Notes under the pieces: model-generated
The model's database searches: none
What the model saw: the letters and a program-made list of their open reading frames with translations, nothing else
What the model was told of the DNA's origin: nothing
Origin: Eledone cirrhosa
Taxonomy: Eukaryota
Length of the DNA stretch: 64,000 nucleotides
NCBI GenBank assembly: GCA_964016885.1
Contig: OZ024743.1
Coordinates: forward strand, 193,998,001-194,062,000
Reading direction: 5' to 3'
Part shown: piece after piece, positions 963 to 61,522 of the stretch
How the letters are laid out: each line of letters starts with the position of its first letter
Numbering within the stretch: the stretch's first letter is position 1
Translations under genes and position numbers: made by a program

Positions 963-7304
<6,342 letters not shown>

Positions 7305-8417: not shown

Positions 8418-9452
8418 TTATTGTTCATTTAGCTTGGGTTTGAACTTATCAATAAAATTCTTTTCTTTGATTTTTCTCTTGATTTCACTTGGGCTGTGTA
8501 ATTTGTAGAATGGGAATATTATAAATATTCCCTGACCACATGTTGCCAGGTGGCCGCTTAGGGGTATCTGACGGACATTTGGGTCTCTGATTTGTTGACG
8601 GTGTACCCGTGCACATTCCGATAGTGCATTTCCAGTTTGGCCGACATATAGTTCTTCACAATTCGGGCATTTAATGCAGTAAATTAGATTTCTGCTTTTG
8701 CAGTTCATATTTGCATTTGGGAATATTTTTCCAGTTTTTGTTTTCATATATTGACCGGCGTGTATGGATTGACATGTGCCGCATCGATTATCATTGCATT
8801 TAGATACAGTGAATGATTGGTCCTTGTTGTTAAGGTCAAACTTTGCTTTTGTTAGCAATTGCTTCAAATTTTTTGGCTGTCTTTTACTAAGAGTCAAAGA
8901 TCGATCTGTGATTAAGCCTTTTAATTCATTACTTTGAGCAATGATCGGTAGGTTTGCTTTGGCAGTGTTGAATATATTCTGGTGACATGGTTTGTGTGTC
9001 ATTATAAATGGTATGACCAGTTCTTGGTTTCTTCTTCCTTGGGTTGTTCTAAGTTGTTGTATAGGTATTTTTATAGCCCGCTGTATGCCATTTTCTATAA
9101 GTAGAGATGGGTATTTTTGTTTGAGCAAAAATTCTCTTAGTTCTGTTAGGCGTTTGTACCTGGTATTCGTATCTTCTACAATGGTACAAATTCTTCTGGC
9201 TAGGCAGTATGGGATGTTGCGTTTTGTATGAGGTGGATGGCACGACTTAAAATTCAGATATTGATGGGTGTCTGTGTGTTTATAATATATATCCGTGGTA
9301 ATGGTGGTGTCGTTTTTGATTATCATTATATCTAGGAATGGTAATTTGGTCCTACTCATCTCTTTTGTGAATTGGAGAGATGGGTGTAGGTTATTCAGGA
9401 GGATATTGAACTCATCCAGAGTATCTAGAGATTCTGTCCAGATGATGAAACA
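8418..9452 (-). pseudogene. PLE polyprotein, C-terminal part: RT motif 5-7 remnant, thumb, Cys linker, GIY-YIG endonuclease
   Basis: CFIIW (just after the missing YxDD), LPFLDIMI, TDIYYKHTDTHQYL, KCNDNRCGTC, NLIYCIKC..LYVGQTG..R..H, final PKLN. Confidence 0.9.
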
Positions 9453-10826: not shown

Positions 10827-11928
10827 TGACAAACAAAAGATAATGGTCAAAAGAAATGGGATGGTAGAATTGAACTGGTTCAGTGAATATAGCAGGTTGT
10901 TTTTTCATATATGAGTGAAGTTTGGTTGGTTGATGTAGTCACGTGAATAAGTATATCAGCTTTCGCGTAAGTTTGTTTGAATTTCTTTTTACTTTAAAAA
11001 AAGTGGCTCACGAAGGCGTTTTTTTTAATAAATATAATTTGATCGGTTATAAATGAATTTATGGCTGTCACGTAAACAAGTTCATTAAATTTCGCGCCCG
11101 TATTTGGGAATTTATTTTGTAGCCTTTTAGAGAATTTTATGACAAGCAAAAGATAATGGTCAAAAGAAATGGGATGGGAGAATTGTTCTGGTTCAGTGAA
11201 TATGGTTGGTTCGCTGGGGTGTCAGAATTCAGATTTTCTATTGAAATAAATAAAGTAAAGATATGTATGTTTATTTGTGTGCTTGTGTGTGTGTGTGTGT
11301 ATATAGGAATATGATTCTATTAGTAGAAATGGGGGAGGGAGTTGTGTGTGTGTGTGTGTATATATGGGTGTTATGTGTGTGTGTTTGTGTGGGAGTAAGT
11401 TAAAATGGAGAGAATCTATATATTTTGTGTGTGTGTATATGTGTGTAGGAAAGTGATTCTATTAGTAGAAATGGGGAGGGCGTTGTGTGTGTGGGGGGTG
11501 GGGGGGGGGGGGTGTTATGTGTGTGTATGGGTGTTATGTGTGTGTGGGAGTATGGTTAGCATGTTAAGATGAAAAGAATATATATATTGTGTGTGTGTGT
11601 AGGTGTGTGCGTGTGTAGGAAAATGATTCCGTCAGTAGGAATATTTTTGAATGAACATATTTTCCTTACTTATTCGTATTTGTTCTGTTGTATTGTCAGC
11701 GCAAATGTATGTTAAGGTTTATTTAGTTCGGGTTTTTATTTTCTAAAGTAGGTGTTATGTGTGTGTGTATGTGTCTGTTTGGATGGTTAGCATATTATGG
11801 TGTTGACATAATGTATATTAAACCATATTTAATGCTGGTCTATATTTTTGAATAAACATATTTTCCGTATTTATTCGTATTTGTTCTGTTGTATTGTCAG
11901 CGCAAAGGTAAAATGGGAAGACTTGGAA

Positions 11929-11984
<56 letters not shown>

Positions 11985-12040: not shown

Positions 12041-12510
12041 GAATTGGTGCTCTGAAATAGCGATATATACATGAATATATATATAGTATATTTGGCAATA
12101 TACTGTATGCTTAATTAAAAACATTTTGAAGACCTTGCGCTATTATTTTAAAGTAGTGACTATGTCACTTACTTCTTTTTTCAACAAACAAATGGAGATA
12201 AGCTGACAGATCAGTTTCACACTGTTGGTGATCATCAGAGCTTAGCACTCGCCGATGCCTGTTGAAAATTATAGATGCTGGATTCTTATAGAATTCCAGT
12301 AATAATCAGGAACTGATTATACAGAGCGATTGCCGGTCCCCCAAAAAATAAAATTAGAATTGGTGCTCTGAAATAGCGATGTATACATGAATATATATAT
12401 AGTATATTTGGCAATATACTGTATGCTTAATTAAAAACATTTTGAACACCTTGCACTATTATTTTAAAGTAGTGACTATGTCACTTACTTCTGTTTTCAA
12501 CAAAAGAAGT
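12036..12510 (-). mobile_element. Retrozyme-like element, 316-bp unit, about 1.5 copies; relative of the 310-bp family
   Basis: Direct repeat with period 316; shares gctctgaaatagcgatatata, aacattttgaagacct and gagcg.ttgccggtcc with the 310-bp unit. Confidence 0.8.
12198..12244 (-). ncRNA. Type I hammerhead ribozyme
   Basis: taagct CTGATGA tcac caaca gtgt GAAA c tgatct GTC agctta. Confidence 0.8.
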
Positions 12511-14009: not shown

Positions 14010-14330
14010 TTTGGTAAGCTGGTGGTAGTATGTAGTCCCAATGTAGTGTCTCTATGGTTGTATTACAGATGGAAGTCTTCTGTTAGGATAGTAGAACAAA
14101 GTAGAATAGTGGCTTGTGCTGGTAGTAGTATGTAGTCCCAAAGTAGTGTCTGTATGGCTGTATTACAAATGGAAGTTTTCTGTTAGAATAGTAGAACAAA
14201 ATAGTACAGTGGCAATGTAATAGTATTAGTATACAGTCCCAATGTAGTATATGTATGGTTGTATTACAGATGGAAGTATTCTGTTAGGTAGTAGATCAAA
14301 ATAGTATAGTGGCAGTGTACTATAATATTC
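14010..14330. repeat. Degenerate minisatellite, about 100-bp unit, about 3 copies
   Basis: gtagtcccaatgtagtgtc..gtattacagatggaagt..ctgttag..gtagaacaaa repeated. Confidence 0.7.
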
Positions 14331-14534
14331 CATAGTGAAGAATTCTTATTAGTTATTTCAGACATTTGATACATATTATTTGCTATGTCTTCATCATATT
14401 CATTTGTAAAAGTTTTAAAAAATCATATAACTACATGATCAGTTAAATGTAAACTTTCCATAAACAAACGAAAACATTATGACGATATATCTCTGTTGTT
14501 GCTGTTGTTGCTACTTCTGTTGATAATAATAATG

Positions 14535-14990
14535 ATTTCTAGTATAGGCACAACGCAAGTAATTTTGGGGGAGGGGAAAGTCAATTAAATCGACCCCAGT
14601 GCGTGACTGGTGCTTTATTTTATCGACCCCGTAAGGAGGAAAGGCAAAGCTAACTTCGGCAGTAATTGAACTCAGAACGCAAAGAACCGTAACTCGATGC
14701 CATAAAGCATATTGTCCGACGCTCTACCGATACTGCCAATCCACCACCCTTATAGTAGTAGTAATCGTAATAATGATTTCAACTATAGGTACAAGGCCAG
14801 CAATTTAGGGGAGGGGGAAAATCGATTATATCGTCCCAGTGTATTACTGGTGCTTTATTTTATCGACCCCGTAAGGATGAAAGGCAAAGCTAACCCTCGG
14901 CAGGATTCAAACTCAGAATGTAAAGGGCCGTAACTCTATGTCGCGAAGCAGGGTATCTGACGCTCAACCGATTCTGCCAATCCACCACCC
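14535..14990 (-). mobile_element. Two adjacent tRNA-derived SINEs
   Basis: Each has tttattttatcgaccccgtaaggatgaaaggcaaag and a tRNA-like head with A/B boxes on the minus strand. Confidence 0.85.
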
Positions 14991-17429
14991 TCGTAATAAT
15001 AATAACAACAAAATTCATAATATTAATAGGAATAATTATAATGTAGATATACTGTAGTAGAGTAGTATGAACACTGTCAGGTAATTCTAAAAGGTTGATA
15101 TGAAAATATTGCGTTTAAGATTTATAGGAATGGAAAGGAAAGATGGCAGAATCTCGGCGTATGGATGTGATCCATTAATGTATTGAAGATTACATAAAGT
15201 GTTTGATTCAATGTTGTGAGGATAGAAGATAATATAATGAAAGGAAGACCAACTATATCTCTCTTTCTATACATATACTGTATATCTATAGATATTGTAT
15301 AAGAAAACATGTTTAGACTTGCTGTTAAGATTGTTCTGACGGTTAAAACCCACGTTAATGGAACTACGTGATCAGCAACTGGAATGTCACAACAATTTAG
15401 TTCTCCCTAAGAATTTCCCCAGGCACAGTGTACTTGTAGTCCCACATTAACTTTTCTCAGTCATATGCAGATATCCTCGAGACTAGTATAGCTGAATTCA
15501 ATGTACAGTTTATATATATAGTCGGCTATGTTCAGAATGTGCTGATGTATTGACGAATAAAAAGAAATATAGAAAACAAGAGAAAAGCAACTGTTGTTAG
15601 TTATAGATTACACTACACAGCATATGACATAATACATTTAATGCTTATATATATTATACATAAGTGTTTATATATATATAGTATATATATATATTATATG
15701 TATATTATATTTATATTATATATATAGTGAAACATGCACTCTCACACACACACACACTCACACACTCTCACACACACACACACACATATATATGTAGAAA
15801 CATATATATGACGCATACCTCCCACTATATTGATACCAATAGACATGAATGTTTCCACACAACTTCCTTCTCTGAAGAAGTAAAAGAATAAAACACAATT
15901 GTATTTGAAGTAAACTGTAAATAATTTTTTTCCTCAATTTACAAAGGATATTTTCAACAATAAGAATATAGAAAACTAGAAGTAAGAAAACTCTTTATAG
16001 CTAGAAATAAGCACATAAACATTTTATATTGTTCGTTTATACTTTATGTGGTTTACTTAAGTTTATTTACATTTTATCGTCTTCATATTTCTATGCCGTT
16101 AGTGCAAAAACCAAAAAAGAAAACCCCCAAAACAACAAAAAGAAAAAAACAACAACAAAAAATGCCTTCTAAATTGAGAATTTTGGAATTTTGGAATTAT
16201 CTCCACTTTATTTCTAACTCTTTTCTATTCCATCCATCTCCTACTGACGAAAGGATGTTACCAGGATACATCAATGTTTAGGTATACAATAATGTATTCT
16301 ATTGTTCCATATTCTATACAGAGCTTCTACTTTACACAAATATGACAGTTAAAGAAAATCCATTTTGGACTTTTTTAATCTGATAAAATTGTACATATAC
16401 CAGAACACTAAGTGAAGCTCAAAAAGTAAAATTTGAGAATTAAAGATAACATAATATTCCTTAAAATTTACAACTTTAAAACTAAAATTTCGCATTTGAA
16501 TTGATATTATATCACAGTAAAGTGACAAACGATATCAAACAAACAGAAAAGTGAGAACCGAAAACAACATGCAAATACACAACTTTATTCACTTATGCAA
16601 TCATAGTTTCATTAGCAATATTAAATATAAAGTGTAAAATAAGCAAAGTTCATTTGAACAATATACACTGTGATGTTTACAAATTTCTCAATTATTTCTT
16701 ATGAAAAAAATAATTAAAAAATATTTGTTTAGGAGAAGTCTACACGAACCAACAACGAGTTACTGATAGTTATTTTATCAACTCCTTAAGTAAGGAAGGC
16801 AAACCCCCATCTTGATGGGATTTCGTTTGAGGAGCATAAAGTATTACATTAAAATAAAGCATCTACTATTCTTGAGTTTCCTGTATTATATTCATTAAGT
16901 TGTAATAAACTGTTATCTCTCCTTACTATCGAGATGTGAGTGTAATTTGCAGAGGTGTGAAACTATTAGGAAGATTTAGCATTAAGTTCTGCCAATTTAT
17001 TCGACAAATAGTGGATGTAAAACGTTTATAGCTATCATTAAAGCTGTTAGCTACTTAGGAGATACTGTCAAAGTTGGAAACAATTTCTGAAAGTGAGGAT
17101 CTACAGAGAATCGTTGATACCAAATACTATAGTCAATCAACGATAATAAGTTTCCCTTTATGTGTTACAACATTACATACTGTTTCTAAGAGATTATTAC
17201 AACAATTAAATTTATCGTTTTCTTGTTTTTATTTAATGAGTGGTGTCATTTCCTATTTATGTCTGCATATATTGGGACAAGAAATAAAATATCGAATACT
17301 TATCTACTTACAAATATAAAGCCTCGGAAGATAGGTTCCTAGTTTAGAATGTCAGAGATCTTAAGAAATACTAGCATAATGTTACCATAACAAAAATTGT
17401 ACAAATTACATAACATAATACTTATAATG

Positions 17430-26040: not shown

Positions 26041-26600
26041 AATTAGTATATCTACCAACATATATATATACAGATGCATACCTATGCTAGCAAATATATA
26101 GGTTTTGTCTTAGTAACTTTGTGGTTTAATGCAAGGGGATGCAGAACAATTATATGAAAGACGTAAAATAAGAAAATTATAAAAATTAACTTACTTACTA
26201 AAATTTTACTCCAACTAATTACTTTCTGAAAGAGAATAAACATGGTTTCCGAATGGAACAACGTGGAGAATACCTTTCGTCATCTGGAAGTCAATTCTCA
26301 GCTAAGTTCCCAGGCAATGCGTGGCCACAGGGAACTTATACAAAAATAATTCAGTGGATGGAAAAAAGCAAGCGAGGACTAAATTCCAAGACATTGAAAA
26401 GATCCCTGCCTACATGGTCGGTGGCAAATTCAAAAGAATCAATCACGTGACATCGAGGTTAATCAGTGAGGAGTGGGGTGTTAAGAAGACAGTAGCCGAA
26501 CTATTACTATGAACTATAGTAGTAGTTTTGGCAAATTTTTGCTCAACAAAATAATTTGGAGATAATTATAAAGAATTAGTATATCTACCAACATATATAT
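26035..26600 (-). mobile_element. Old terminally redundant element (533-bp unit) with degenerate HHR at 26238-26290
   Basis: taaagaattagtatatctaccaaca repeated at period 533; CAGATGA cgaa..ttcg GAAA ccatg on the minus strand. Confidence 0.5.
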
Positions 26601-26727
26601 ATATGAATATAGACATAGAATATTCGAAAATATTCTGTATGTTTATAATAAACATTTTGAAGACCTAATCGCTATAGAATAGAATACGTCACGTATTACA
26701 ATTAGATTCTCGGTAAAAGCAAGGGAA

Positions 26728-26770
26728 GTAATCTACGCGTTTCATTCTTATTAGAAATCTTCAGGACTAC
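26728..26770 (-). ncRNA. Type I hammerhead (first of 8 minus-strand copies, spaced 310 bp)
   Basis: gtagtc CTGAAGA tttct aata agaat GAAA c gc GTA gattac. Confidence 0.88.
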
Positions 26771-29389
26771 ATATCCAGTGCTTTTATCGAGAATGACACA
26801 GCTAGAGACTTATAGAATACTTAGCTGTGTACAGAAACTGGTTTGAAAGAGCGGTTGCCGGTCCGGCAGAAATTAGAAATTGGAATAAATGCTCTGAAAT
26901 AGCGATATATATGTGAATATAGACATAGAATATTCGAAAATATTCTGTATGTTTATAATAAACATTTTGAAGACCTAATCGCTATAGAATAGAATACGTC
27001 ACGTATTACAATTAGATTCTCGATAAAAGCAAGGGAAGTAATCTACGCGTTTCATTCTTATTAGAAATCTTCAGGACTACATATCCAGTGCTTTTATCGA
27101 GAATGACACAGCTAGAGACTTATAGAATACTTAGCTGTGTACAGAAACTGGTTTGAAAGAGCGGTTGCCGGTCCGGCAGAAATTAGAAATAGGAATAAAT
27201 GCTCTGAAATAGCGATATATATGTGAATATAGACATAGAATATTCGAAAATATTCTGTATGTTTATAATAAACATTTTGAAGACCTAATCGCTATAGAAT
27301 AGAATACGTCACGTATTACAATTAGATTCTCGATAAAAGCAAGGGAAGTAATCTACGCGTTTCATTCTTATTAGAAATCTTCAGGACTACATATCCAGTG
27401 CTTTTATCGAGAATGACACAGCTAGAGACTTATAGAATACTTAGCTGTGTACAGAAACTGGTTTGAAAGAGCGGTTGCCGGTCCGGCAGAAATTAGAAAT
27501 TGGAATAAATGCTCTGAAATAGCGATATATATGTGAATATAGACATAGAATATTCGAAAATATTCTGTATGTTTATAATAAACATTTTGAAGACCTAATC
27601 GCTATAGAATAGAATACGTCACGTATTACAATTAGATTCTCGATAAAAGCAGGGGAAGTAATCTACGCGTTTCATTCTTATTAGAAATCTTCAGGACTAC
27701 ATATCCAGTGCTTTTATCGAGAATGACACAGCTAGAGACTTATAGAATACTTAGCTGTGTACAGAAACTGGTTTGAAAGAGCGGTTGCCGGTCCGGCAGA
27801 AATTAGAAATTGGAATAAATGCTCTGAAATAGCGATATATATGTGAATATAGACATAGAATATTCGAAAATATTCTGTATGTTTATAATAAACATTTTGA
27901 AGACCTAATCGCTATAGAATAGAATACGTCACGTATTACAATTAGATTCTCGATAAAAGCAAGGGAAGTAATCTACGCGTTTCATTCTTATTAGAAATCT
28001 TCAGGACTACATATCCAGTGCTTTTATCGAGAATGACACAGCTAGAGACTTATAGAATACTTAGCTGTGTACAGAAACTGGTTTGAAAGAGCGGTTGCCG
28101 GTCCGGCAGAAATTAGAAATTGGAATAAATGCTCTGAAATAGCGATATATATGTGAATATAGACATAGAATATTCGAAAATATTCTGTATGTTTATAATA
28201 AACATTTTGAAGACCTAATCGCTATAGAATAGAATACGTCACGTATTACAATTAGATTCTCGATAAAAGCAAGGGAAGTAATCTACGCGTTTCATTCTTA
28301 TTAGAAATCTTCAGGACTACATATCCAGTGCTTTTATCGAGAATGACACAGCTAGAGACTTATAGAATACTTAGCTGTGTACAGAAACTGGTTTGAAAGA
28401 GCGGTTGCCGGTCCGGCAGAAATTAGAAATTGGAATAAATGCTCTGAAATAGCGATATATATGTGAATATAGACATAGAATATTCGAAAATATTCTGTAT
28501 GTTTATAATAAACATTTTGAAGACCTAATCGCTATAGAATAGAATACGTCACGTATTACAATTAGATTCTCGATAAAAGCAAGGGAAGTAATCTACGCGT
28601 TTCATTCTTATTAGAAATCTTCAGGACTACATATCCAGTGCTTTTATCGAGAATGACACAGCTAGAGACTTATAGAATACTTAGCTGTGTACAGAAACTG
28701 GTTTGAAAGAGCGGTTGCCGGTCCGGCAGAAATTAGAAATTGGAATAAATGCTCTGAAATAGCGATATATATGTGAATATAGACATAGAATATTCGAAAA
28801 TATTCTGTATGTTTATAATAAACATTTTGAAGACCTAATCGCTATAGAATAGAATACGTCACGTATTACAATTAGATTCTCGATAAAAGCAAGGGAAGTA
28901 ATCTACGCGTTTCATTCTTATTAGAAATCTTCAGGACTACATATCCAGTGCTTTTATCGAGAATGACACAGCTAGAGACTTATAGAATACTTAGCTGTGT
29001 ACAGAAACTGGTTTGAAAGAGCGGTTGCCGGTCCGGCAGAAATTAGAAATTGGAATAAATGCTCTGAAATAGCGATATATATGTGAATATAGACATAGAA
29101 TATTCGAAAATATTCTGTATGTTTATAATAAACATTTTGAAGACCTAATCGCTATAGAATAGAATCGCTATTCTATAGCGATTAGGTCTTCAAAATGTTT
29201 ATTATAAACATACAGAATATTTTCGAATATTCTATGTCTATATTCACATATATATCGCTATTTCAGAGCATTTATTCCAATTTCTAATTTCTGCCGGACC
29301 GGCAACCGCTCTTTCAAACCAGTTTCTGTACACAGCTAAGTATTCTATAAGTCTCTAGCTGTGTCATTCTCGATAAAAGCACTGGATAT

Positions 29390-29432
29390 GTAGTCCTGAA
29401 GATTTCTAATAAGAATGAAACGCGTAGATTAC
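29390..29432 (+). ncRNA. Type I hammerhead (first of 5 plus-strand copies, spaced 310 bp)
   Basis: gtagtc CTGAAGA tttctaataagaat GAAA cgc GTA gattac. Confidence 0.88.
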
Positions 29433-30829
29433 TTCCCTTGCTTTTATCGAGAATCTAATTGTAATACGTGACGTATTCTATTCTATAGCGATTAGGTCTT
29501 CAAAATGTTTATTATAAACATACAGAATATTTTCGAATATTCTATGTCTATATTCACATATATATCGCTATTTCAGAGCATTTATTCCAATTTCTAATTT
29601 CTGCCGGACCGGCAACCGCTCTTTCAAACCAGTTTCTGTACACAGCTAAGTATTCTATAAGTCTCTAGCTGTGTCATTCTCGATAAAAGCACTGGATATG
29701 TAGTCCTGAAGATTTCTAATAAGAATGAAACGCGTAGATTACTTCCCTTGCTTTTATCGAGAATCTAATTGTAATACGTGACGTATTCTATTCTATAGCG
29801 ATTAGGTCTTCAAAATGTTTATTATAAACATACAGAATATTTTCGAATATTCTATGTCTATATTCACATATATATCGCTATTTCAGAGCATTTATTCCAA
29901 TTTCTAATTTCTGCCGGACCGGCAACCGCTCTTTCAAACCAGTTTCTGTACACAGCTAAGTATTCTATAAGTCTCTAGCTGTGTCATTCTCGATAAAAGC
30001 ACTGGATATGTAGTCCTGAAGATTTCTAATAAGAATGAAACGCGTAGATTACTTCCCTTGCTTTTATCGAGAATCTAATTGTAATACGTGACGTATTCTA
30101 TTCTATAGCGATTAGGTCTTCAAAATGTTTATTATAAACATACAGAATATTTTCGAATATTCTATGTCTATATTCACATATATATCGCTATTTCAGAGCA
30201 TTTATTCCAATTTCTAATTTCTGCCGGACCGGCAACCGCTCTTTCAAACCAGTTTCTGTACACAGCTAAGTATTCTATAAGTCTCTAGCTGTGTCATTCT
30301 CGATAAAAGCACTGGATATGTAGTCCTGAAGATTTCTAATAAGAATGAAACGCGTAGATTACTTCCCTTGCTTTTATCGAGAATCTAATTGTAATACGTG
30401 ACGTATTCTATTCTATAGCGATTAGGTCTTCAAAATGTTTATTATAAACATACAGAATATTTTCGAATATTCTATGTCTATATTCACATATATATCGCTA
30501 TTTCAGAGCATTTATTCCAATTTCTAATTTCTGCCGGACCGGCAACCGCTCTTTCAAACCAGTTTCTGTACACAGCTAAGTATTCTATAAGTCTCTAGCT
30601 GTGTCATTCTCGATAAAAGCACTGGATATGTAGTCCTGAAGATTTCTAATAAGAATGAAACGCGTAGATTACTTCCCTTGCTTTTATCGAGAATCTAATT
30701 GTAATACGTGACGTATTCTATTCTATAGCGATTAGGTCTTCAAAATGTTTATTATAAACATACAGAATATTTTCGAATATTCTATGTCTATATTCACATA
30801 TATATCGCTATTTCAGAGCATTTATTCCA

Positions 30830-30861
<32 letters not shown>

Positions 30862-35021: not shown

Positions 35022-35237
35022 AGTAATAATAATAAATTTGAAGCCTAAAATCCAAAGAGGGCTCGATAAGGATAAATATATATCAAATATATAAGAACCG
35101 TAGAGCAAATATTTATTAAAATAACAGATTAAAGTTTAAGCCAAGAATCGCTGCTTTCACCCTTAACGGGATCTTCTGAAGATCCTGTTAAGGGTGAAAG
35201 CAGCGATTCTTTGCTTAAACTTTAATCTGTTATTTTA

Positions 35238-35242
<5 letters not shown>
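35022..35242. mobile_element. Fold-back short element with HHR-like remnant
   Basis: Palindrome centred at 35177 within CTGAAGA tcc.gttaagggt GAAA; no clean NUH triplet. Confidence 0.55.
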
Positions 35243-35427: not shown

Positions 35428-35674
35428 ATTAATATTAAGAAAAATTAATAATACGAAGAGTTAAAATTTGAGACTTGAAAATTCAAGTATAAAATTCATT
35501 GTGGGATTTCATAGCAGTTTTCATCTAGGTAGCAACAACAGGTTGACTGCTGTGTCCCTTTCTGGTAGTGAATGAGAAGTTATTTGGGGTGTGGGTTATT
35601 TTATAAAGGTCAGATTTAGCAATAGCCAGCTGCTGGTCAGTGAGGGGGTGGAAGCAATATATATATATATATAA

Positions 35675-35884
35675 ATGAAGTAATTCCGTCGGAAAAGTCC
35701 AGGAAAAAAGAGTGCTCTGTGTAGGTAACAGAGCTTAATAGTTCTGTAATAAACAACATAAGGCAATTATTTCATTTGCCAGTGGTTTCTTAAAAGCAAA
35801 CAAATGTTGCTTTCAATCATCAGAATGAAAAAATCCTGGTGTATTTATTGGCATTGGATTTTAAAAACAAAAATATAATCTATA

Positions 35885-35915
<31 letters not shown>

Positions 35916-36172
35916 ATGTATGCGTGTATGTATATATATATATATGTATGTATATAATTGTGTGTGTGTGTGTTTGCATGTGTGTTTATTTTTCCTTTCC
36001 TTCTTCCTTTTCCAGCCTCACTTTCATATAGATTATATTTTTGTTTTTAAAATCCAATGCCAATAAATACACCACGATTTTTTCATTCTGATGATTGAAA
36101 GCAAAATTTGTTTGCTTTTAAGAAACCACTGGTAAATGAAATAATTGCCTTATGTTGTTTATTACATAACTA
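35675..36172. mobile_element. Inverted pair with a minimal HHR-like motif
   Basis: 35737-35886 is the reverse complement of 36025-36172; CTGATGA tt GAAA gcaa..ttgc TT. Confidence 0.6.
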
Positions 36173-56063: not shown

Positions 56064-56257
56064 TATGTATACGTACATACATATATCTATACAGACGTAC
56101 AGTAGTATGTATATATATATACATACATGCACATATATATATACATGTACGTATGGATTCACCGAACATTTATTATAATGCTCGGTGTGTTTGTAAACAA
56201 ACATCCCGAGAAATGAAATTTCGTTTCATTTTTTCCGTTTATATATATATATATATA

Positions 56258-58996
56258 TTGGAATAAATGCTCTGAAATAGCGATATATATGTGAATATAG
56301 ACATAGAATATTCGAAAATATTCTGTATGTTTATAATAAACATTTTGAAGACCTAATCGCTATAGAATAGAATACGTCACGTATTACAATTAGATTCTCG
56401 ATAAAAGCAAGGGAAGTAATCTACGCGTTTCATTCTTTTTAGAAATCATCAGGACTACATATCCAGTGCTTTTATCGAGAATGACACAGCTAGAGACTTA
56501 TAGAATACTTAGCTGTGTACAGGAACTGGTTTGAAAGAGCGGTTGCCGGTCCGGCAGAAATTAGAAATTGGAATAAATGCTCTGAAATAGCGATATATAT
56601 GTGAATATAGACATAGAATATTCGAAAATATTCTGTATGTTTATAATAAACATTTTGAAGACCTAATCGCTATAGAATAGAATACGTCACGTATTACAAT
56701 TAGATTCTCGATAAAAGCAAGGGAAGTAATCTACGCGTTTCATTCTTTTTAGAAATCATCAGGACTACATATCCAGTGCTTTTATCGAGAATGACACAGC
56801 TAGAGACTTATAGAATACTTAGCTGTGTACAGGAACTGGTTTGAAAGAGCGGTTGCCGGTCCGGCAGAAATTAGAAATTGGAATAAATGCTCTGAAATAG
56901 CGATATATATGTGAATATAGACATAGAATATTCGAAAATATTCTGTATGTTTATAATAAACATTTTGAAGACCTAATCGCTATAGAATAGAATACGTCAC
57001 GTATTACAATTAGATTCTCGATAAAAGCAAGGGAAGTAATCTACGCGTTTCATTCTTTTTAGAAATCATCAGGACTACATATCCAGTGCTTTTATCGAGA
57101 ATGACACAGCTAGAGACTTATAGAATACTTAGCTGTGTACAGGAACTGGTTTGAAAGAGCGGTTGCCGGTCCGGCAGAAATTAGAAATTGGAATAAATGC
57201 TCTGAAATAGCGATATATATGTGAATATAGACATAGAATATTCGAAAATATTCTGTATGTTTATAATAAACATTTTGAAGACCTAATCGCTATAGAATAG
57301 AATACGTCACGTATTACAATTAGATTCTCGATAAAAGCAAGGGAATCTAATTGTAATACGTGACGTATTCTATTCTATAGCGATTAGGTCTTCAAAATGT
57401 TTATTATAAACATACAGAATATTTTCGAATATTCTATGTCTATATTCACATATATATCGCTATTTCAGAGCATTTATTCCAATTTCTAATTTCTGCCGGA
57501 CCGGCAACCGCTCTTTCAAACCAGTTCCTGTACACAGCTAAGTATTCTATAAGTCTCTAGCTGTGTCATTCTCGATAAAAGCACTGGATATGTAGTCCTG
57601 ATGATTTCTAAAAAGAATGAAACGCGTAGATTACTTCCCTTGCTTTTATCGAGAATCTAATTGTAATACGTGACGTATTCTATTCTATAGCGATTAGGTC
57701 TTCAAAATGTTTATTATAAACATACAGAATATTTTCGAATATTCTATGTCTATATTCACATATATATCGCTATTTCAGAGCATTTATTCCAATTTCTAAT
57801 TTCTGCCGGACCGGCAACCGCTCTTTCAAACCAGTTCCTGTACACAGCTAAGTATTCTATAAGTCTCTAGCTGTGTCATTCTCGATAAAAGCACTGGATA
57901 TGTAGTCCTGATGATTTCTAAAAAGAATGAAACGCGTAGATTACTTCCCTTGCTTTTATCGAGAATCTAATTGTAATACGTGACGTATTCTATTCTATAG
58001 CGATTAGGTCTTCAAAATGTTTATTATAAACATACAGAATATTTTCGAATATTCTATGTCTATATTCACATATATATCGCTATTTCAGAGCATTTATTCC
58101 AATTTCTAATTTCTGCCGGACCGGCAACCGCTCTTTCAAACCAGTTCCTGTACACAGCTAAGTATTCTATAAGTCTCTAGCTGTGTCATTCTCGATAAAA
58201 GCACTGGATATGTAGTCCTGATGATTTCTAAAAAGAATGAAACGCGTAGATTACTTCCCTTGCTTTTATCGAGAATCTAATTGTAATACGTGACGTATTC
58301 TATTCTATAGCGATTAGGTCTTCAAAATGTTTATTATAAACATACAGAATATTTTCGAATATTCTATGTCTATATTCACATATATATCGCTATTTCAGAG
58401 CATTTATTCCAATTTCTAATTTCTGCCGGACCGGCAACCGCTCTTTCAAACCAGTTCCTGTACACAGCTAAGTATTCTATAAGTCTCTAGCTGTGTCATT
58501 CTCGATAAAAGCACTGGATATGTAGTCCTGATGATTTCTAAAAAGAATGAAACGCGTAGATTACTTCCCTTGCTTTTATCGAGAATCTAATTGTAATACG
58601 TGACGTATTCTATTCTATAGCGATTAGGTCTTCAAAATGTTTATTATAAACATACAGAATATTTTCGAATATTCTATGTCTATATTCACATATATATCGC
58701 TATTTCAGAGCATTTATTCCAATTTCTAATTTCTGCCGGACCGGCAACCGCTCTTTCAAACCAGTTCCTGTACACAGCTAAGTATTCTATAAGTCTCTAG
58801 CTGTGTCATTCTCGATAAAAGCACTGGATATGTAGTCCTGATGATTTCTAAAAAGAATGAAACGCGTAGATTACTTCCCTTGCTTTTATCGAGAATCTAA
58901 TTGTAATACGTGACGTATTCTATTCTATAGCGATTAGGTCTTCAAAATGTTTATTATAAACATACAGAATATTTTCGAATATTCTATGTCTATATT

Positions 58997-59001
<5 letters not shown>
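56258..59001. mobile_element. 310-bp retrozyme-like array 2: about 3.5 copies (HHR on -), inversion at about 57335, about 5.3 copies (HHR on +)
   Basis: Period 310; 8 hammerheads (56416, 56726, 57036 on -; 57592, 57902, 58212, 58522, 58832 on +); (TA)n flanks. Confidence 0.92.
57592..57634 (+). ncRNA. Type I hammerhead (representative of array 2)
   Basis: gtagtc CTGATGA tttct aaaa agaat GAAA c gc GTA gattac. Confidence 0.88.
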
Positions 59002-59051
<50 letters not shown>

Positions 59052-59506: not shown

Positions 59507-61522
59507 TTAATTGTAAGTTGTGATGTAACTGTTCCACTCATGTTTTCTATTTAATTTTGGTTGTAATTCATTTATGATTATTGCCTCTGTGATTTGTCTA
59601 AACATTGCGTCTTTTCTGTTTGTAGATTCTATTTTTATTTCTATGTTCTCTAATTTACCCTTATGTTCTATTTTAGCATGTTGGTAGAGTACAGGTGATT
59701 CTTTACTATCTTGAAGGTCTCGCCAGTGTTCATTTATCCGTTCCCCTATACTACGAGCTGTCTCACCTATGTACACTATATTTTTATCTCTACATTGTCC
59801 TTCAGTACATCTTATGCTATATACTACATTTCTAGTTTTACAGTTAATATGGGGGCTTAATTTACAGATTATACATTTCTTATCTATACAGGGAGGTTTT
59901 TGAAAAGGGTATGTCTTGCTAATAAGTGTTTTTATGGAGGTACCTGGTCTTTCTACTATCTTAATATTGAGTTTATGTTTATCTAGGGCCCTTCTAAATT
60001 TGTAAGCTAATTCACCTCTAGGGGTTGTCTCGATGAACATTACACTCTGGTATTTATTGCTATCATACCATGAGTTTATTCTATTAGCCTTATTCCTAGT
60101 TCTTTCTATTCTATTCCAAAATTTGCTCCTATACAAGGGGCAGGTCCCATTTGTGTCATTATTTACCATTTTTTCCCATTTGGTTCTGGCTCCTCTATAC
60201 ACTCTGATTTTATCTCTTTGATTGTAACCAGAGAACTGCATACGGTGGGTGAAGTGTTGTATGTGTCTCTCTAGTTCTTCGGGGTTGCACATGCGGGACA
60301 CGTTTCTCATCACCCGTACCAAATCCGCAATCAGTATGTTGATTTTGGTATGGTCCGAAAAAGTTGAGTTTCGGTGGATCAGATATTTGGAAGATATGGG
60401 TTTGGCCTAATGGGAATGGAGGATTTGTTTTTTGTTATTAATGGTATCTAACCAGAGCTCTGTGTCTAGTACAGGTAATCGATGGTTGGGGTGTTTGCTT
60501 GGGTAGTCTATAGTAACTCTAATACTCTGGTGGATGGAGTTAGCTATTTGCTGGATGCTTTTCATTGTGTTTTTCTCTAATTCCTGACTGTTCTCTAGTG
60601 GGGCTGTTTTAACTACGATGTTTATATCATCAACGTAGCGGGAGTACATTATCAGGGTTAAGGGGTCTTCTAATTGTTCTTTAAGTTTAAGTTTAAGTTT
60701 ACTGTCCCACCATACCATGAATAGGTTAGCTATGTCGCCTGCAATGCTAACACCAATGGCTGCTCCCTCCTCTTGGGCATATGTTTTTCCATTAAATTTG
60801 AACATATGTTCCTTAAGGGTTAATTTTATGCTGGCCCCCACCGCATGTGCAATCATCTTCTTTAGTTCATCGTGGTTTTCGGGGGTCCGTATGGCTCTGG
60901 TCCACCCGTTCCATCTATCTGTGTGGATTTTCTTGGCCATTGAGGTAATGGTAGGTGGTCTGCCTCTTGCTGGTCTTGTAGGGCACAGGTTGCTAAGGTC
61001 ATATGTGTCTAGATAATTATTACTATAGGTAAGTTTAAGTAGGAGTCCCAGCTCACTGGTATCAATCCCAAGGAATTCAACATTGCTCTCACTGATCATT
61101 TATTTGCATTTCTCCACAGCAAAATCCACGTCAATAGATGGATACAGGGACACAACAGCCATACTACCTATTATGCAGTTTGTTAGATCCCTAGATCGGT
61201 TACTCTCGCCGATTCTGCTGAGGAGGTCCTCCGTGCTGTCACATACATCTGGGGACATTTCAATGATGGGGCGTATGATCAGGGAGAGGAAGTAGGACAG
61301 TCTGTAGTTACTAGCAATATTAGCTCCACAGACTGGCCGTGTTGGTGATCCTGTGACAGGGTCACTGCTCGTTTTATGGTCTTTTCGAAGCCCATATAAC
61401 GCTGGCACGTCATTGTTCCAGGCCTGGAAGTTGTTGGCAGTCCTTTTGTTGGGCTGCATTATATTTGTCCACATCATCATATGGGCATTGAGGGCTTTTT
61501 CTCTATCCTCATGCTCTTGTGG
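59507..61522 (-). pseudogene. PLE RT + GIY-YIG endonuclease with two in-frame premature stops (61100-61102 and 60407-60409)
   Basis: LYGLRKDHK..RPVCG, SLYPSID, GAAIG, YSRYVDDI, LPVLD, VVYSIRC..VYIGETARSIGERINEH, PKLN; the three listed ORFs are in the same frame. Confidence 0.9.

Follow-up and report, generated by a model that had tools for sequence, protein, structure and literature searches.

A 64,000-nt stretch of the Eledone cirrhosa genome (contig OZ024743.1, positions 193,998,001 to 194,062,000; the window, in whose numbering positions are given) contains two arrays of a 310-nt unit that carries a candidate hammerhead ribozyme. The locus studied here, array 2 (56257-59007), is a young insertion of a retrozyme without long terminal repeats (non-LTR retrozyme) with the footprint of a Penelope-like element (PLE). 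Both the element class and the Penelope footprint are already known. Array 1 (26594-30833) lies in the same window. We consider it probable that an enzyme like those of PLEs, combining reverse transcriptase (RT) and endonuclease, inserted array 2 in one event, in which both cut ends of the target primed on one RNA that was probably circular. The parts of this account differ in strength. That the array is the product of a single PLE-type insertion event is very likely, and that one template haplotype was copied per event is about as likely. A covalently closed monomer circle as the template is the likely reading, to judge from the sequences of the copies.

Array 2 is a head-to-head pair of tandem arms inserted in a (TA)n tract. 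Unit positions refer to the reference unit at 57482-57791. Site A is unit 277-286, a TATATAT tract, and site B lies just past ...TTCCAA. The features of the two arrays are as follows.

56240-56258, no strand: left (TA)n target flank.
56257-57345, minus strand: left arm of array 2, 1089 nt or 3.51 units, with 1089/1089 nt matching the unit; outer 3' end at site B (unit 2), inner 5' end truncated at unit 154.
57328-57345, no strand: inversion junction, with a 3-nt GAA overlap at 57343-57345 common to both arms.
57343-59007, plus strand: right arm of array 2, 1665 nt or 5.37 units, with 1665/1665 nt matching the unit; truncated 5' end at unit 172, while the 3' end runs into the TA tract at site A (unit 279-286).
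57482-57791, plus strand: reference 310-nt unit.
57568-57655, plus strand: candidate type I hammerhead fold, core 57598-57628 (unit 117-147), predicted cleavage after 57628 (unit 147).
57758-57800, plus strand: putative reverse-transcription start zone, once per unit, from end tallies; site A at 57758-57767, site B at 57793-57800 and the "tail" between them.
59000-59049, no strand: right (TA)n target flank.
26594-29165, minus strand: left arm of array 1, 8.29 units; site A end, with a terminal C278T mismatch.
29168-30833, plus strand: right arm of array 1, 5.38 units; site B end (unit 4).

Both arms of array 2 are 100% identical to a single 310-nt unit, and the second inverted array that an earlier note had described in the window is present. 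Its GAA overlap at the inversion point was correctly seen. However, the 15 nt at 57328-57342 that had been taken for a spacer are not foreign DNA; they are left-arm sequence that extends past the start of the right arm and is unmatched by it. The two arrays were also said to share the same two end-points. They do end in the same two zones, A and B, but on different bases (unit 277 and 4 in array 1, 279-286 and 2 in array 2). The three differences between the arrays, at unit 46, 121, and 131, are fixed in 13/13 units of array 1 and 8/8 units of array 2, as had been noticed. Array 1 has in addition three single-unit changes (26713, 27191, and 27652) and a terminal change at 26603. Because its flanks are pure TA, no target duplication is visible at array 2. 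The unit has 34% GC, which fits the short, non-coding, low-GC tandem unit (about 150-1000 nt) of non-LTR retrozymes. A scan of the array loci for open reading frames (ORFs) gave no long one inside the arrays, and the unit is 310 nt long, so it is not an autonomous PLE.

The family is large. Counted as exact pattern matches in the 3.0-Gb host assembly, where TA and CA microsatellites are abundant, it comprises 14,929 hammerhead cores, which are dispersed and without LTR, as well as 1,170 site A ends and 1,190 site B ends. A total of 137 genomic regions were fetched (loci are named L followed by a number). Twelve were found by DNA search, 80 surround the first A ends on contig C1, 17 are every place outside the window with the variant C46T, 8 bear the core without the exact A pattern, and 20 have B ends without it. 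Since the 80 C1 regions were chosen by an exact A end and the 20 by a B end, only the opposite end is informative there. Dropped before counting were L043 (a three-part junction, with outer ends A and B), the second array of L057 (which is L058), the second array of L066 (an apparent duplicate), arrays cut by the end of a region, and single-armed loci. The median arm length is 3.5 units, and 71/214 arms have at least 5 units. Two arms are present in 69/80 of the A-selected regions.

Complete two-armed loci follow a simple rule: 107/109 have one A end and one B end, and no A+A or B+B locus is found among the 109. The tally consists of 95/97 loci, including 27/28 found without end selection (window, DNA search, or C46T search) and 64/64 selected by A, plus 12/12 B-selected loci with A opposite. 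The two loci outside the rule are older copies with a short arm that does not extend to either site. The rule also holds for an older subfamily of about 95% identity. End positions are therefore not uniform over the unit, in line with the earlier note. Sites A and B are 20-40 nt apart, and the motif between them is retained in diverged relatives. Arm length is unrelated to end type. The A arm is the longer one in 47/95 loci and in 7/12 of the B-selected loci (54/107), and the impression that the longer arm ends at the TATATAT tract was due to chance.

The outer ends have TA flanks nearly everywhere. At about half of the A ends the target's T replaces C278 of the unit, a change confined to the terminal unit. 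B ends terminate at an AT or TA dinucleotide (unit 2, 4, 6, and 9). Both are the expected trace of a nicked (TA)n end that pairs loosely with the RNA. Priming by TA microhomology had been suggested for one of the two ends; the microhomology is found, but at both. Impure targets reveal direct duplications of 12, 14, 14, 15, and 15 bp (microhomology included) at L123, L036, L142, L129, and L147, respectively. These duplications and the lack of partly spread variants indicate one insertion event and, as had been argued, do not fit slow satellite expansion.

Variants within the arrays label the template. For variant counts the last 14-16 nt of outer ends and 12-35 nt of inner ends were excluded. 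Among 71 young loci that were informative, 25 different variants, in 81 events, have become fixed in both arms; not one is specific to a single arm. After 20 more regions, the arms differ in 1/58 loci, i.e., 57/58 have a single haplotype. The positional sample of C1 has 18 haplotypes across 49 loci; the two arms differ in 1/49 loci, whereas 85% of the 2,352 arm pairs compared between loci do. Changes confined to a single unit number about 4.6 per 10,000 bases. The end rule and the arm haplotypes together support the proposal of one copying event from a single RNA variant with two priming registers. The three variants are not private to the two arrays, however. The exact array-2 unit is present at 9 other loci and the three-variant haplotype of array 1 is fixed in 6 other arrays, making them lineage marks. 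A new variant on top of a lineage is found in L124, where A273T is fixed in all 10 units and present in 0/6 sister arrays. Another variant, C46T, has 65 genomic matches; it is fixed in 7 arrays on one background and is a lone change in others.

The unit is predicted to form a type I hammerhead. By pairing and folding, stem I has six pairs and carries a long extension, stem II measures 4 bp, and mini stem III is a palindrome. The core is found in 8/8 full positions of array 2 (besides the listed one, at 57908, 58218, 58528, and 58838 on the plus strand and at 57072, 56762, and 56452 on the minus strand) and in 13/13 of array 1. The 95-nt hammerhead region folds at z -7.2, with 0/200 shuffles equally stable, and the circular monomer folds at z -4.7. 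As a scan of Rfam at the gathering score gave 0 hits, the hammerhead call rests on the motif and the folding. The subfamily changes G114A, A149G, and A113G preserve stem I pairing, which points to selection on the RNA.

We infer the following course of insertion. Tandem transcripts would cleave themselves at unit 147, probably as dimers through the palindromic stem III, and the monomer would then be ligated into a circle. A dimeric PLE protein would bind near unit 277-319 and nick both DNA strands 12-15 nt apart. Each DNA 3' end would pair with the RNA through an AT microhomology of 1-9 nt, at A for one end and at B for the other. Both RT sites would travel along the circle, displacing strands as they go, for 0.2 to more than 20 turns, and each would stop independently of the other. 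The two complementary DNA (cDNA) ends would then join by microhomology and the second strands would be filled in. Of the 103 arm junctions, 70 show an overlap of 1 nt or more, 10 are flush, and 23 have inserted bases. Very long arms would be extended afterwards by block duplication. These steps fit the long-proposed rolling-circle reverse transcription of a monomer circle. A more specific picture is possible but somewhat doubtful: a dimeric Penelope RT may place its two active sites on one RNA circle, 20-40 nt apart, one for each end of the staggered cut, so that one chases the other round.

Metazoan non-LTR retrozymes (Cervera and de la Pena 2020, PMC7229834; Li, Clavereau, Pollet 2026, bioRxiv 10.64898/2026.07.22.740005) share many of these features; here and below, statements on published work refer to the available parts of the sources. 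They have an AT-rich, non-coding unit of about 300 nt with one type I hammerhead, occur in tandem and in thousands of units, and a circle intermediate and a PLE partner have been proposed for them. Retrozyme circles have been proposed as templates of tandem cDNA made by a PLE RT (PMC7229834, PMC4209133), and the 2026 preprint links retrozymes to PLE termini and also invokes local amplification. Expression and circles have been demonstrated for these retrozymes; for the Eledone unit they are presumed. The available texts describe head-to-tail arrays only, whereas the arrays here are mostly two-armed palindromes, and the terms "inverted", "target site", and "microsatellite" do not occur in the available text of PMC7229834. 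The fixed A+B ends, the target duplications, and the one haplotype per event go beyond what these texts describe for retrozymes.

The mode of insertion resembles that of endonuclease-bearing (EN+) PLEs such as Penelope/Poseidon, Neptune, Hydra, and Naiad (Craig 2021, PMC8557442; Arkhipova 2013, PMC3846280; Frangieh 2024, PMC11167929). PLE insertions often contain a head-to-head inverted, 5'-truncated copy and a tail of 30-40 bp at one end only, and they favour (TA)n (PMC8557442, PMC3846280). A purified PLE cuts and extends both strands, is a predicted dimer, and starts reverse transcription at two internal sites that bound the tail (PMC11167929). The two registers of the arrays match this tail and its two start sites. 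Target duplications are 8-10 bp in rotifer copies of EN+ PLEs and 12-15 bp here. Unlike EN+ PLEs, the Eledone arrays have no ORF, and their whole body is the repeated monomer, with arms that reach more than 20 turns. MRC1 and other Chlamys elements (PMC8557442) are also non-coding PLE passengers with multicopy head-to-tail insertions, but most lack a hammerhead and prefer (CA)n or (C)n.

The simplest account would join the two-ended priming of PLEs with circle-templated tandem cDNA, each by analogy with its published system. L1 twin priming differs from it. There, too, both target-cut ends prime first-strand cDNA and a head-to-head inversion joined by microhomology results. However, two short non-overlapping pieces of one linear RNA are copied and the second start is variable, while in the Eledone arrays the two starts have fixed positions 20-40 nt from each other and the same sequence is copied repeatedly into either arm.

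Several observations in this and the next paragraph weigh against our account. The usual closing pair of stem II is G10.1-C11.1 (PMC4209133). In the unit stem II is closed by U.U instead, so that cleavage may be weak. In metazoan type I hammerheads a short palindromic helix III is typical and cleavage is thought to take place as dimers (PMC4209133); the U.U at the base of stem II together with the palindromic mini stem III suggests weak, dimer-dependent self-cleavage. With purified PLE, unprocessed RNA was the dominant substrate, start sites were alike on both strands, and priming had no homology requirement (PMC11167929), whereas in the arrays one start per strand is near-obligatory and short microhomology is present. 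By BLAST, 11/80 of the A-selected regions are single-armed. L033 and L042 each contain one unit of a foreign haplotype. In L153 (G000:C1:61292161-61300160) unit 113 switches within one arm and the arms differ. In its left arm the four outer units read A and the two inner ones G, and every one of the seven units of its right arm reads G. A switch of template, editing as the copy was made, or conversion between the arms at a later time would each produce this pattern. None of the 65 genomic matches of C46T fits as its donor unit; among the candidates, the copy in L123 is not within a monomer that could be excised, and in L139 a further variant is fixed.

Nor did the search for a partner PLE, a low-stringency BLAST of three unit families against masked loci, find any ORF-linked terminus like the unit among 30 GIY-YIG and 16 long-ORF loci. 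The 3' end of Chlamys elements resembles that of their autonomous partner (PMC8557442), and no such partner was found for the Eledone unit in these 46 loci. In favour of the account, ORFs for RT and GIY-YIG are plentiful in the genome, with 10,596 first-look GIY-YIG candidates. The matches were only to other retrozyme-like copies and to one short TA-inserted family without a linked ORF (L203, L207, L213, and others). The hammerhead core of this family is like the unit core in 26/28 nt, and its inverted pairs mostly have one short and one long end. The same combination is seen in 5/6 inverted pairs of an ORF-bearing PLE family, by a rough anchor count, which favours a PLE-type origin. In a third family, Z, 2/5 inverted pairs have equal ends, one of them ORF-bearing, again by rough anchor. 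A remote match to unit 199-313 (67% over 115 nt, E 7e-6), a segment that would be the RT start region, lies outside any array in L123 at about 1900-2010 (minus strand).

The main rival to a circular template is a linear multimer, long and uncleaved, from a donor array that is young and homogeneous, or two RNAs of one such array, used by the same two-ended PLE priming while circles are rare or absent. This is unlikely, though stems II and III are weak here, purified PLE used mainly uncleaved RNA (PMC11167929), and 8/9 Xenopus retrozyme dimers showed no cleavage in vitro (bioRxiv 2026.07.22.740005). If both arms copied a linear multimer, unit-to-unit differences should recur at equal rank. In 248 unit-lengths that both arms would copy from such a multimer, 2 variants are rank-shared and 65 are not. 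L076 and L085 have a variant shared by rank in both arms, which fits a multimer and counts against a circle, and the whole test is weaker than it looks because young donors are nearly homogeneous. Even so, the 65/67 non-uniform variants that are not rank-shared speak against a multimer. It also leaves unexplained why at least 25 variants are uniform throughout the units of both arms while intermediates that have spread part of the way are almost absent, and arms of more than 20 units would require transcripts of more than 6 kb. From two RNAs one would expect arm-specific fixed variants, which are seen in 1/58 loci.

It is very unlikely that the template was one linear monomer cut by the ribozyme, on which the RT, on reaching the 5' end, jumped back to the 3' end again and again, in the manner of telomerase-like repeat addition and without ligation. 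Such jumping predicts the same one-haplotype arrays, and PLE RTs are relatives of telomerase (PMC8557442). Five loci (L049, L089, L092, L100, and L109) have 1-nt insertions at unit 149, two positions past the predicted cleavage site, which would favour it. However, the insertions are identical in all units of each array and run in lineages, and are therefore features of the template. The junction is seamless in unit after unit: at the predicted ligation point 2 of 5,661 calls deviate, against 185 of 291,158 overall, which is no excess of change. Inner ends do not pile up near the predicted cut site either (2/170, about 6 expected by chance).

A short insertion that was later grown and homogenised as a satellite, or one arm made as a fold-back copy of the other, is largely refuted as the origin of the arrays and is highly improbable in that role. 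Local amplification by unequal crossover has been proposed for retrozymes (bioRxiv 2026.07.22.740005), and self-priming for PLE palindromes (PMC3846280). The inner ends of the arms are scattered over the unit with mild non-uniformity (p = 0.011), and sites A and B are not strongly avoided. Inner ends of the two arms lie within 20 nt of each other in phase in 14/103 junctions, with 13.6 expected. They are thus unrelated in phase, implying that the arms are two independently truncated products, and a fold-back origin is rejected. The longer arm, too, may be either one. As for satellite growth, the older-subfamily arrays L126 and L134 gather unshared changes without homogenisation, and partly spread variants are confined to a few loci. 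Block-duplicated variant patterns occur in the longest arms (L058, L080/L159, L126, and L149), which indicates that growth of the satellite type acts later, after insertion, and it remains a secondary process in very long arms. L080 and L159 (G000:C1, about 97.46-97.48 Mb) form one arm, probably of about 45 units, in which linked variants at unit 228 and 231 repeat.

No more credible is a DNA circle copied by rolling-circle DNA replication, or an origin of the palindromes as assembly artefacts: a monomer DNA circle would fix variants too, but the pairing kept by the subfamily changes in stem I points to RNA and the geometry equals that of RT-encoding PLEs; long palindromes may be library artefacts, but more than 100 loci have different unique flanks, A/B-specific ends, and target duplications, and in an independent sequencing run 9 contigs exit the unit at site A into TA.

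That public run also has the same variants. Public runs with the unit carry 18 different organism labels; 8 of the 24 listed were examined, and X1, X3, X4, X5, X8, X9, and X16 were compared on window positions 57520-57829. Six runs, with six labels, gave one near-identical contig each, with a single haplotype, and three different haplotypes overall; it is not in every case the haplotype most common in the genome. The differently labelled runs are equally well explained by cross-contamination, by close relatives, or by horizontal spread. Closed 310-nt contigs are found in public runs; they are equally expected from tandem DNA, and so are no sign of a circle. Among the listed public runs there is no RNA run holding the unit.

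Changes from A to G recur at paired positions, at unit 113 on 5 backgrounds, 167 on 3, and 96 on 2. By strict counting, fixed A>G and T>C changes number 6 to 3, which is not significant; the share of A>G differs between fixed and single-unit variants at p = 0.035. Adenosine-to-inosine (A-to-I) editing and selection for G.U pairs explain the recurrence equally, and there is a hint of editing at most. If the more specific picture of a dimeric RT on one circle is true, a single RNA molecule, once edited or mutated, would enter the genome at one stroke in up to 40 copies. The arrays would then be in-genome evidence of rolling-circle retrotransposition, and the tail of PLEs would reflect one start site per subunit. 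Were the A-to-G changes at 113, 167, and 96 A-to-I edits as well, RNA editing would be heritable by this route.

The insertion mode of PLEs and the movement of retrozymes via RNA circles have been called unresolved (PMC8557442, PMC7229834, PMC11167929). The value of the findings lies in mechanistic constraint, and they argue against an origin of these retrozyme arrays by slow satellite growth. This family offers more than 1,000 young natural events whose variants label the template. For the in vitro PLE system, our account predicts that each strand has one start site, that both are copied from the same RNA, and that the circle is rounded many times. The one-start-site-per-strand rule, the one-template evidence, and two-armed retrozyme arrays were not found in the literature searched, in which subscription journals and supplements are thinly covered; Fig. 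S9 of Cervera 2020 and the supplementary tables of the bioRxiv preprint may bear on two-armed arrays.

Several other elements related to PLEs are found in the window. At 12045-12500 (minus strand) there is a diverged relative of the unit with a period of about 316 nt, a core at 12238, and a site B end in (TA)n. Its motif between A and B is kept, and its 5' side is joined to the inverted end of a different PLE family, as either a chimeric two-armed insertion or nested insertions. A short palindromic (TA)n insertion at 35023-35240 has one long and one short end of the ORF-bearing PLE family, and its terminus also flanks ORFs in L036 and L121. At 35660-36170 an inverted pair of hammerhead-bearing ends (cores at 35823, minus strand, and 36088, plus strand) has TA flanks and unrelated sequence between the arms. 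Coding fragments of PLE RT/GIY-YIG at 8424-9440, 11641-11937, and 59735-60841 (minus strand) have 46%, 79%, and 24% identity, respectively, to the ORF of L031 and represent at least 3 families. Degenerate tandem repeats are found at 14018-14318 (period 100, 3 copies) and 14527-14991 (period 241, 1.9 copies).

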